Assembly (NCBI GenBank): GCA_021469345.1
Contig: GCA_021469345.1_3049.1
Origin: a phage
Length of the DNA stretch: 64,000 bases
Direction: 5' to 3' (one strand)
In this document: piece after piece, positions 14,389-16,407 of the stretch
Layout of the letters: every line of letters begins with the position of its first letter
Position numbering within the stretch: the stretch's first letter is position 1
The notes under the pieces: generated by a model
What the model saw: only the letters and a program-made list of their open reading frames with translations
The model's database searches: none
What the model was told of the DNA's origin: nothing
Position numbers and translations under genes: made by a program

Positions 14389-14907
14389 ATGAAACGATTA
14401 GTATTAGAAGTTAGTTCACTTTTTGGTGAATTGGCTATAGAAAAAGTAAATAATATGTATCGTTTGACACAAGAAGACGATATGCTATATTTTACGCCTA
14501 GTGAAATCATTCATTTAACCCAAATTGAAAATCCTTATACTGATAAAATTGTAAGCATTAATGATGAGCATAAAATTCATTTTTATTCTTCATGCCCAGG
14601 ATTTAATATTGAAAGCGAGTCAATATGCTTATCAGTTATCCATTGGGATAGTTTTATAGATAAGATTAAATATTTTTATTATTCTAATGAAAGAAAACAT
14701 AGTTTAAAATGGCTCAAAAATTGCAATGCTATTATTACTAACGCTTGCAATCAGAATGATGAAACTATTTTAAATGTGTCAAAATGTTATGAAGAGGGAG
14801 ATGTAGTATCTATTCGTCAAAACAATGGAGAAATTTCATTATCAAAATCAGAAGCTGAAGCTATGATTAAGTATTTAACAACCGTTACGCCTTCAATGAA
14901 AGGATAA
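14389..14907 (+). CDS. hypothetical protein (172 aa), first gene of a coupled trio
   Basis: trimmed to ATG 14389; stop 3 nt before next start. Confidence 0.55.
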   Translation: MKRLVLEVSSLFGELAIEKVNNMYRLTQEDDMLYFTPSEIIHLTQIENPYTDKIVSINDEHKIHFYSSCPGFNIESESICLSVIHWDSFIDKIKYFYYSNERKHSLKWLKNCNAIITNACNQNDETILNVSKCYEEGDVVSIRQNNGEISLSKSEAEAMIKYLTTVTPSMKG

Positions 14908-14909
14908 TT

Positions 14910-15371
14910 ATGATTATTAATGAAAACTCTTGGCACTATAAATTATTCAAATTGTTTAACGATGAATGGCAACGACCTAAGACGCTGTGCGCATACTTTT
15001 GGTCTATTGTTATCCCTACATTTTTCGTTTCTTTTTTCGGATGTACTATACTCGTAGGTCTAACTATCATCTGCGCAGAAATCATGCAGAAATGGCTTAT
15101 TTTTGGTAGTTTATGGACTCTTATTCCATCAGCATTTATACTTGCTATTTTGCTTGTTTTACTTATTATTGGTTCATTTGTTATTCCTGCACAACTGCAT
15201 GAAAAATATAAAGATTATAAATGGAAAAAGGATTATGCTTTACATGTAGAAAATATTGATAGGGCGTATAAAGGTTTACCTCCTATTCAACCCAAGAAAT
15301 CTATTATCGTCGAATTTTTAAAAGCTCGTAAAGCTAAAGTATGTCCTGTTATTGAATATAAGGCTGAATGA
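14910..15371 (+). CDS. integral membrane protein (153 aa)
   Basis: three to four hydrophobic helices in N-terminal 100 aa; ATGA overlap with downstream NTase gene. Confidence 0.6.
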   Translation: MIINENSWHYKLFKLFNDEWQRPKTLCAYFWSIVIPTFFVSFFGCTILVGLTIICAEIMQKWLIFGSLWTLIPSAFILAILLVLLIIGSFVIPAQLHEKYKDYKWKKDYALHVENIDRAYKGLPPIQPKKSIIVEFLKARKAKVCPVIEYKAE

Positions 15372-16381
15372 TGAAAACAGTAATGAAAAGCTATTTTGGT
15401 AGTTATCTTTATGGAACTTCTACCCCAGAATCTGATGTAGATTTTAAAGAAATCTTTGTTCCTCCTGCTCGTGATATTCTTATTGGAAATGTTAAAGAGC
15501 ACATGAGTAAAAACACTAACAACACATCATCTAAAAACACTAAAGATGATATTGACCATGAACTATACAGTCTTAAATATTTCTTTAAATTAGCAGCAGA
15601 TGGTGAAACTATAGCATTGGATATGCTTCACACTCCACCTGAACTAGTGGTTAAATCTGATTTGCCTGATGTGTGGAAGTTTATTCAAGACAACCGTTCT
15701 CGTTTTTATACGACTAGCATGAAATCATATTTAGGATATGTCCGCAAGCAGGCTTCTAAATACGGTGTCAAGGGTTCTCGTTTGGCTGCATTACGCGATG
15801 TATTGAAAGTAGTTAATCAAATCCCTGAGCAATGGGTTGATTACCAAGAAGACGGTTCCATTAAGCAGCGTCGTACTAAAGTTGAAGATATTAAGCATCG
15901 TCTTCCAGAAAACGAATTCTGTGAATGGGTGTTCCATAATCATGAGAAAACAGGCCCGCAAACGTTCTACACTGTGTTGGGTCGTAAATATCAGACAACG
16001 CTTTCTCTTATTGAGCTTAAGCAGTCACTGAACAAATTAGATGCTGAATATGGTGAACGTGCTCGTAAGGCCGAAGCCAATGAAGGCATTGACTGGAAAG
16101 CTCTGAGTCATGCTTGTCGTGGTGGACTTCAACTATTGGAAATTTACAAAACTGGTGACTTGGTTTATCCACTTCAAGACGCTCCATTTATTCTCGACGT
16201 GAAGTTGGGTAAACATCCATTTAAAACGGTTCAAGAGTTTTTGGAAGATGTGGTTGATCAAGTAGAAGCAGCATCTACTGAAGCTTCTAAGAACGGTATG
16301 CAGCAAAAAGTAGACATGAGTTTCTGGGATGACTTCCTTGAGAAGGTGTATCTCGAAAACCATCGAAGTTATTATAAATGA
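15368..16381 (+). CDS. Pol-beta-superfamily nucleotidyltransferase (337 aa)
   Basis: N-terminal GS-x10-DVD motif (FGSYLYGTSTPESDVDF) plus downstream acidic DDIDHE; subfamily not assignable by eye. Confidence 0.65.
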   Translation: MMKTVMKSYFGSYLYGTSTPESDVDFKEIFVPPARDILIGNVKEHMSKNTNNTSSKNTKDDIDHELYSLKYFFKLAADGETIALDMLHTPPELVVKSDLPDVWKFIQDNRSRFYTTSMKSYLGYVRKQASKYGVKGSRLAALRDVLKVVNQIPEQWVDYQEDGSIKQRRTKVEDIKHRLPENEFCEWVFHNHEKTGPQTFYTVLGRKYQTTLSLIELKQSLNKLDAEYGERARKAEANEGIDWKALSHACRGGLQLLEIYKTGDLVYPLQDAPFILDVKLGKHPFKTVQEFLEDVVDQVEAASTEASKNGMQQKVDMSFWDDFLEKVYLENHRSYYK

Positions 16382-16383
16382 TA

Positions 16384-16407
16384 GGGAGCCTTCGGGCTCC
16401 TTTTTTT
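16384..16407 (+). terminator. strong rho-independent terminator
   Basis: GGGAGCC-TTCG-GGCTCC + T7. Confidence 0.85.

Follow-up and report, generated by a model that had tools for sequence, protein, structure and literature searches.

The nucleotidyltransferase encoded beside a small membrane protein in a T4-like phage is an ortholog of T4 NrdC.11, and the pairing of the two genes is synteny inherited within one lineage

Does a membrane protein gene that overlaps a nucleotidyltransferase gene in a T4-like phage mark a nucleotide-signalling module? The question arises from a 64,000-nucleotide stretch of phage DNA (contig GCA_021469345.1_3049.1 of GenBank assembly GCA_021469345.1; hereafter the window), which is from a Tequatrovirus and is 97–98% identical to many T4-like genomes across nucleotides 14000–16800. 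An initial annotation had described three consecutive open reading frames (ORFs) in this region as a translationally coupled unit that joins a membrane protein to a DNA polymerase beta (Pol-beta)-type nucleotidyltransferase (NTase). The three frames are present as described, the third running from 15368 to 16381 in its longer form, and their products are referred to here as P1, P2 and P3. They and the predicted catalytic elements of P3 are as follows:

14389..14907, + strand: P1, a MobD.1/y05I-type protein, 172 aa (PF24449 and PF24448; phrog_1502)
14910..15371, + strand: P2, a small integral membrane protein of the PHROG-944 family, 153 aa (phrog_944, E = 3.5e-50; hydropathy)
15371..16381, + strand: P3, an RlaP-family (PF10127) Pol-beta nucleotidyltransferase and NrdC.11 ortholog, 336 aa from its probable start (337 aa from 15368)
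15398..15442, + strand: codons of the predicted catalytic signature G10-S11...D22-x-D24, of the form hG[GS]-x10-DxD (127-homolog alignment)
15548..15556, + strand: codons of D60-I-D62, at the start of predicted beta-strand 61–67 (alignment and model)

Judged by sequence, P3 is the ortholog of T4 NrdC.11 (NP_049709). The two proteins are 97.9% identical over 336 aa, and the gene has the orientation and map position of its counterparts in T4 and phage ACG-C40, with mobD.x genes on one side and nrdC.10 on the other. Whether T4 has a homolog, which had been left undecided, is thereby answered. The T4 orthology is clear, but the T4 gene is not an experimentally characterised one; its product is named 'nucleotidyltransferase' in RefSeq. 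P3 matches phrog_388 and the Pfam family PF10127 (RlaP, 'RNA repair pathway DNA polymerase beta family'), the latter with a score of 42.2 bits where the cut-off is 23 (E = 9.8e-11, residues 7–135), and PF10127 is present in 240/240 P3 homologs among the matches listed. By tblastn, relatives occur in 1,518 phage records, their identity ranging from 99% to ~27%. Many phage and giant-virus relatives labelled 'nucleotidyltransferase' also appear in BFVD.

Both acidic motifs previously noted in P3 are present. The first, GS-x10-DxD, lies within FGSYLYGTSTPESDVDF in the form FGS-x10-DVD. In an alignment of 127 homologs, extending down to ~30% identity, residues G10, D24 and D84 are invariant, and S11 (124/127), D22 (126/127), D60 and D62 (125/127 each) are nearly so; the second motif, the 'DDIDHE' cluster that contains D60 and D62, is therefore also conserved. 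Conservation extends to basic and aromatic motifs of the C-terminal domain, K130-Y131-G132-x-K134-G135-x-R137 and D241-W-K243...H247...R250. The AlphaFold2 model of P3 has a mean predicted local distance difference test (pLDDT) score of 90.2 and runs from an NTase alpha/beta core through a linker helix and a beta-rich segment (~150–210) to a helical C-terminal domain, after which comes a final helix. In the model D62 stands at the start of strand 61–67, and because of the position of this strand in the Pol-beta fold topology, D62 or D60 is likely to be the third metal-binding carboxylate, as had been guessed for the 'DDIDHE' cluster. The secondary-structure order agrees with the published description of the PfRlaP crystal structure (NTase domain, C-terminal helical domain, a last helix that packs back on the NTase domain), the comparison being one of the order of elements. 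The family match, the conserved carboxylates and the modelled fold bear out the earlier assignment of P3 to the Pol-beta superfamily, and they identify it as an RlaP-family member with its catalytic carboxylates intact.

The fold leaves several kinds of substrate to be considered. Structural neighbours of P3 in the PDB, which include ANT(4')/KNTase, LinB, AadA and the NTase-like entry 3c18, are fold-level only; no Foldseek match reached an E-value of 1e-3 or better, and PDB sequence searches with P3 alone and with the 127-sequence profile returned nothing relevant. Such neighbours would suit an enzyme that modifies something other than damaged RNA: a small molecule, as the aminoglycoside and lincosamide NTases do, a protein, by AMPylation in the manner of MntA-type antitoxins, or DNA ends. 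The limitation of the Pfam RlaP model to the NTase core, which implies that the substrate-binding part has diverged, points the same way. We nevertheless consider a target of this kind unlikely. P3 scores 13.8 bits against the NCBIfam MntA model, for which the cut-off is 60, and 16.7 bits against PF01909, for which it is 21, and no HEPN gene is adjacent. Relatives in the NrdC.11 clade adjoin RNA ligase genes, as described below. Activity on RNA, and none on other E. coli macromolecules, is described for the sole characterised members of the family (10.64898/2025.12.29.696909).

A further comparison had been drawn with the cGAS/DncV-like nucleotidyltransferases (CD-NTases) of cyclic-oligonucleotide-based antiphage signalling systems (CBASS). 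P3 shares with these enzymes only the Pol-beta GS...DxD signature. Neither PADLOC nor Pfam assigned P3 to them, no cGAS, DncV or OAS structure is among its top fold matches, and the unit encodes no effector with a nucleotide-sensor domain, P2 having no domain match in Pfam, NCBIfam or PADLOC. The suggestion of a CD-NTase or nucleotide-signalling enzyme thus finds no support here.

T4 is the source of the first RNA repair pathway, in which Pnkp and Rnl1 reverse the cleavage of tRNA-Lys by PrrC. This pathway was expected to be defeated by anticodon nucleases that, like RloC, remove a nucleotide as well. The T4 genes for Pnkp, Rnl1 and Rnl2 are located elsewhere in the genome, away from nrdC.11. 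A preprint of December 2025 describes two Pseudomonas RlaPs, from P. fluorescens and P. aeruginosa, that are encoded between rtcB and rtcA (10.64898/2025.12.29.696909). Both add one or two nucleoside monophosphates onto an RNA 3'-OH, but not onto a 3'-phosphate, and, of the two halves of a cleaved-tRNA mimic, they favour the 5' one, which is the anticodon-loop end, over the 3' one (10.64898/2025.12.29.696909). They are required for a tRNA to regain aminoacylation after nucleotide loss, and in the authors' proposal RlaP serves as an antidote against RloC and other 'smart' ribotoxins (10.64898/2025.12.29.696909). Addition is non-templated, and the Discussion of the preprint expects mostly wrong-nucleotide products (10.64898/2025.12.29.696909). 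T4 NrdC.11 itself was placed in cluster 5 of the PF10127 sequence similarity network (SSN) and marked as an RlaP of unknown function (10.64898/2025.12.29.696909).

Our preferred reading, to which we assign a probability of roughly 0.6, is that NrdC.11 is an accessory RNA (tRNA) end-repair enzyme that acts with the Pnkp/RNA-ligase pathway of T4, and that P2 is its neighbour by descent. By analogy with the Pseudomonas RlaPs, NrdC.11 would most likely use a nucleoside triphosphate, with D22, D24 and D62 holding two metal ions. It would add one or two nucleotides to broken RNA 3' ends and leave a 3'-OH on the product, which could for that reason be sealed by the 5'-phosphate RNA ligases of T4 (Rnl1/Rnl2) after end-healing by Pnkp. 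In this way tRNAs that had lost a nucleotide to excising anticodon nucleases, RloC for example, would be restored. Given the biochemistry of the family and the genomic context of the clade, an RNA substrate and a repair role for NrdC.11 are most likely. P3 resembles the Pseudomonas enzymes in its above-threshold Pfam match, its three conserved acidic residues and its similar domain order. The nrdC.11–mobD.3 segment of T4 is dispensable and can be lost (PMC9825161), which fits an accessory or counter-defence role.

The genomic context was assessed at 11 loci that carry non-T4 members of the NrdC.11 clade and represent ~8 lineages. An RNA ligase gene lies within ~5 kb of the NTase gene at 5/11 of these loci and at the other six there is none. 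The ligases found are as follows:

L068: Rnl2-type and Rnl1-type ligases
L074 and L077 (one lineage): an Rnl1-type ligase
L076: a PF09414 ligase, with an HD/AAA_33 kinase and PTH2
L078: 84 nt separate the NTase gene from a PF09414 ligase gene directly upstream of it

Because ligases stand near five of the 11 clade loci, this distribution is suggestive of a phage clade that shares the RNA-repair association of its family. Other neighbours of the NrdC.11-like gene also recur in one non-T4 lineage (L072, L074, L077 and L080). ScmC-like and SNase genes stand upstream at L074, L077 and L080, and genes for SprT-like, HU and ~480-aa DUF2828/DUF7788 proteins downstream; of these, L072 has only the DUF2828/DUF7788 gene. 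Some of the four loci have an Rnl1-type ligase and an AAA_33 kinase-like gene close by.

Several observations weigh against the preferred reading. The sample of clade loci is small, its lineages partly overlap, and a ligase gene is in any case frequent in large phage genomes. In the window, neither the unit nor its flanks contain a ligase, Pnkp or RtcB gene, and no RNA ligase or Pnkp gene is adjacent to nrdC.11 in T4. The ~135 N-terminal residues that align to the Pfam model are the NTase core alone, and the C-terminal two thirds of P3, including a beta-rich insert at ~150–210 that is additional to the Pseudomonas RlaPs, are uncovered. As NrdC.11 also falls in SSN cluster 5 and the Pseudomonas enzymes in cluster 1a, its choice of substrate could differ from theirs. 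Being phage-borne, P3 is not part of an RtcB/RtcA operon, and its activity, unlike that of the Pseudomonas RlaPs, is predicted. Our search of the literature found no experiment on NrdC.11 itself. Finally, a P2-family gene stands upstream of the NTase gene, adjacent to it or nearby, in 26/33 T4-like loci, often with a start/stop overlap, which leaves room for a functional link within that lineage.

An RlaP-like activity could also serve a different end of the tRNA. NrdC.11 might maintain tRNA 3' ends, by CCA repair or addition on T4-encoded tRNAs, and play no part in anticodon-loop repair. It is general knowledge that T4-like phages encode their own tRNAs, and RlaPs add one or two nucleotides to any accessible RNA 3'-OH in vitro. 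The preference of the characterised enzymes for the cleaved-tRNA mimic's 5' half speaks against such a role, as does their non-templated addition, which would yield mostly wrong nucleotides. Moreover, P3 has no similarity to CCA-adding enzymes beyond the fold, and the gene is dispensable. We judge CCA maintenance improbable, and end repair that serves the Pnkp/RNA-ligase pathway remains our preferred reading.

We then compared loci to assess whether P2 and the NTase form a conserved module, as the initial annotation proposed. The order y05I-type gene, P2, NrdC.11 is common in enterobacterial T4-like phages. In T4, however, the HNH homing endonuclease gene mobD takes the place of P2, overlapping nrdC.11 by 17 nt, and there is no membrane protein gene at this position. 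One further locus (L005) has neither P1 nor P2, and the P2 genes of T2 and several other phages are truncated. Unrelated genes also separate the two: an HNH endonuclease gene lies between P2 and the NTase at L009, and in phages of Klebsiella, Enterobacter and related groups (L014, L016, L017, L019–L023 and L027) one or two extra ORFs intervene. In most of the latter the extra ORF belongs to a divergent ~170-aa family that is also found 5' of the NTase gene in Aeromonas-type phages that lack P2.

The two genes also differ in sequence conservation and in distribution. A ~98%-identical NrdC.11 can stand beside a P2 allele only ~29% identical to that of the window, for example in OL960581 (vB_EcoM_SA20RB) and NC_054932 (teqdroes), which implies allele replacement or mosaicism at the P2 slot. 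By tblastn, P2 is found in 933 phage records and the NTase in 1,518. Distant P2 loci were located with a degenerate DNA pattern of the C-terminal motif, which gave 32 hits; three of these (L035, L038 and L041) are chance 35-aa ORFs and were ignored. Among the ~27 genuine P2-family genes, on diverse viral contigs and many of them in jumbo phages, a hidden Markov model search detected an NrdC.11-type gene nearby only in a single, T4-like locus. Conversely, a P2-family gene is present in 0/11 of the non-T4 NTase loci. The more constant neighbour of P2 is a y05I_C-type ORF, upstream of it in 23/25 loci. Since either gene, P2 or the NTase, occurs without its neighbour, other genes occupy the slot and the two do not co-occur at a distance, their pairing is inherited synteny of one lineage and not a conserved two-component system. 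This negative result is the contribution of the present analysis, which otherwise provides context: RefSeq annotation and the literature already contain the nrdC.11 gene, its family assignment and the repair hypothesis. NrdC.11 relatives occur in >1,500 sequenced phage genomes. If NrdC.11 does restore a lost nucleotide, the repair system of T4-like phages would comprise three enzymes, and this idea is directly testable with existing T4 genetics.

The ~170-aa ORF family, for which no Pfam match was found, lies just upstream of the NTase gene, at about 3350–4004, in L014, L016, L017, L019–L023, L026, L027 and L029, in phages of the Klebsiella, Enterobacter, Salmonella S16 and Aeromonas types. 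It is absent from the window and from T4, and is a more deeply conserved neighbour of the NTase than P2.

These comparisons bear on the idea that the two proteins form a signalling pair, in which the NTase product gates P2 or is sensed by it, as in CBASS or as in Hailong, where HalB makes oligo-dA and HalA is a channel. Such a pair might act in counter-defence, superinfection exclusion or lysis timing. The gene order, with a membrane protein before an NTase and their stop and start codons overlapping, fits this idea, as does the near or direct adjacency at the 26 T4-like loci. We regard it as very improbable nonetheless. The likeness of P3 to HalB is at the level of fold (14% identity over 127 aligned residues) and has no counterpart in sequence matches to the PDB; PADLOC is blank for both P2 and P3; and P2, at 153 aa, has no recognisable ligand-binding domain. 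The NTase is retained without P2 in T4 and other phages, P2 is truncated in T2 and others, and relatives of each are found elsewhere without the other, those of P2 in jumbo and other phages. The presence of unrelated genes between the two in some genomes is likewise hard to reconcile with a pair.

Hailong itself differs from the window in further respects. HalB has 217 aa and lacks an equivalent of the C-terminal half of NrdC.11. HalA forms a tetrameric channel with a cytoplasmic crown (PMC13434031), whereas P2 is modelled as a 153-aa hairpin. A Hailong-type system would be expected to show obligate pairing of NTase and effector, whereas the pairing of P2 with an NTase is confined to one phage lineage. 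We give least credence of all to the specific proposal that, in enterobacterial T4-like phages, P2 and NrdC.11 form a Hailong-type analogue in which a short nucleotide or oligonucleotide controls P2 or is delivered to it, or that the NTase makes a decoy oligonucleotide that keeps a HalA-type channel of the host shut.

P2 is an integral membrane protein by hydropathy, as previously proposed, with a hydrophobic core of ~70 residues (26–95; maximum KD19 of 3.0) and basic flanks. The three to four helices that had been expected are reduced to two in its AlphaFold2 model, which is of moderate confidence (pLDDT 70; predicted template modelling score 0.37) and has long helices at 26–64 and 71–120. 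No Pfam, NCBIfam or PADLOC model matched P2. A word-indexed search found 23 relatives, and an exhaustive profile search returned 1,944 cluster representatives (50% clustering) at E <= 0.001. The match to the PHROG 944 'membrane protein' family is full-length and includes its terminal signatures, and no feature sets P2 apart from this family. These results suggest that P2 is a small two-helix inner-membrane protein from a very large phage family.

Across this family the transmembrane core is hypervariable and the termini are sharply conserved. In P2 the terminal motifs that flank the core are NSWHY..PKTLCAYFW at the N-terminus and KARKAKVCPVIEY at the C-terminus. The family consensus is x-I-N-x-x-S-W-H-Y...P-x-x-L-C-x-Y-F-W at the N-terminus and K-A-[KR]-K-x-K-h-C-P-x-I-E-F at the C-terminus, and H9, C27, Y29, K143, C145 and P146 are invariant in the alignments. 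In the model an N-terminal strand pairs with a C-terminal strand, which would bring both conserved termini together on the cytoplasmic side. Because of this predicted pairing and the invariant His, Cys and Cys-Pro residues, we suggest that the termini form a small cytoplasmic, possibly metal-binding, module carried on a variable transmembrane hairpin.

The coupling of the three genes can be judged from their transcriptional setting. The + strand of the window is the T4 early-gene strand, and the gene order is rI antiholin, rI.-1, four tandem DUF7438 paralogs, a phage tudor-domain protein, P1, P2, P3 and the terminator. The remaining features of the unit are as follows:

13773..13801, + strand: candidate early promoter (sigma-70-type), TTTACA-17-TATAGT with TG, 10/12 by consensus scan only, 5' of the coupled chain
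13934..14119, + strand: DUF7438 small protein, first in the coupled chain and one of four tandem paralogs (Pfam PF24219, E = 1.4e-15), 1 nt from the next gene
14121..14387, + strand: phage tudor-domain protein, 88 aa (Pfam PF24144, E = 2.3e-40), its TAA 1 nt before the P1 ATG
16383..16410, + strand: intrinsic terminator that closes the unit, with an 8-bp GC-rich stem, a UUCG loop and a U-run

Junction sequences confirm the stop/start coupling that had been reported. The upstream ORF meets P1 at TAA-A-ATG, P1 meets P2 at TAA-TT-ATG, and the TGA stop of P2 overlaps the tandem ATGATG of P3. The distance from an AAGG Shine-Dalgarno sequence is 4 nt for the first of these ATG codons (15368) and 7 nt for the second (15371); because of the latter spacing and the 336-aa annotation in T4, the second is the probable start of P3 and would overlap the P2 stop by 1 nt. 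The terminator is real as well: a terminator scan gave GGGAGCC-UUCG-GGCUCCC followed by the U-run, with a folding energy of -15 kcal/mol (z = -3.85), and 0/200 shuffled sequences were as stable.

The coupled chain reaches upstream beyond P1 to 13934. Tight junctions make up 10/14 of those between 12267 and 18661 of the window and 15/28 of those in T4 from 44 to 60 kb, where one of them is the overlap between nrdC.11 and mobD, a selfish endonuclease gene. Stop/start coupling is thus the norm in the region and is no argument for a functional module. P1, P2 and P3 represent three known phage families and lie distally in an early transcription unit, within the variable region from rI to nrdC, at the end of that unit. 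We infer that P2, which is co-transcribed and coupled like most genes here, is not a dedicated partner of NrdC.11 and functions independently of it.

A second promoter-like site, TTGACA-16-TATATT with an extended -10 TG (11/12), lies within the P1 coding sequence at 14464–14491 (+). If active, it would yield a transcript that covers only P2 and NrdC.11; it may be a chance product of coding sequence.

The Pfam matches of P1 are both above cut-off (T4_y05I_N, E = 6e-38, 129.9 bits; T4_y05I_C, E = 7e-23, 81.2 bits), and the protein is 77% identical to T4 MobD.1. ACG-C40-like phages have two tandem paralogs of this type, gp176 and gp177. Nucleotides 14380–14821 of the window are of the gp176 type (95%), and 14809–14912 correspond to the gp177 type at its 3' end (99%). 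The first ~146 residues of P1 are accordingly of the MobD.1 type, as in gp176 and T4 MobD.1, and the last ~26 are from the gp177 paralog, the two parts being joined at a common 'SIRQ' stretch. P1 is a deletion hybrid of tandem paralogs that apparently arose by loss of ~540 nt at this microhomology (junction near 14809–14821). A GTG start at 14368 was rejected for P1; the ATG at 14389 is preceded by an AAGGA Shine-Dalgarno sequence and agrees with the T4 and ACG-C40 starts. The phrog_944 profile has 235 positions, of which P2 covers 85–229, and the possibility of a single gene split into P1 and P2 was examined. This was also rejected, as P1 matches phrog_1502 and T4 MobD.1 from end to end; the longer phrog_944 members have N-terminal extensions.

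The flanks of the unit also differ among T4-like phages. Upstream, the four DUF7438 paralogs (13227–14119, ~57–67 aa each) and the tudor-domain gene that follows form a local paralog array in the rI–mobD region. Past the terminator are an early-type promoter-like site, a 49-aa ORF and a DUF4031 gene, then the gene for NrdC.10, an AAA/STAND-like NTPase. The 49-aa and DUF4031 ORFs (16498–16907) are additional to T4, which lacks them between nrdC.11 and nrdC.10; ACG-C40 has an additional ModB-like ADP-ribosylase gene in this interval. After nrdC.10, a 239-aa ORF at 17942–18661 is not found in T4 at that position; by eye its N-terminus is GIY-x10-YxG-like, and it has no Pfam hit.

Misannotations that derive from gene names are widespread in public records for this region. 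Orthologs of NrdC.11 are called 'putative HNH homing endonuclease' or 'thioredoxin', the label of MobD.1 and MobD.4 is 'molybdopterin-guanine dinucleotide biosynthesis protein MobD', and a DUF7438 protein is listed as 'helicase loader'.

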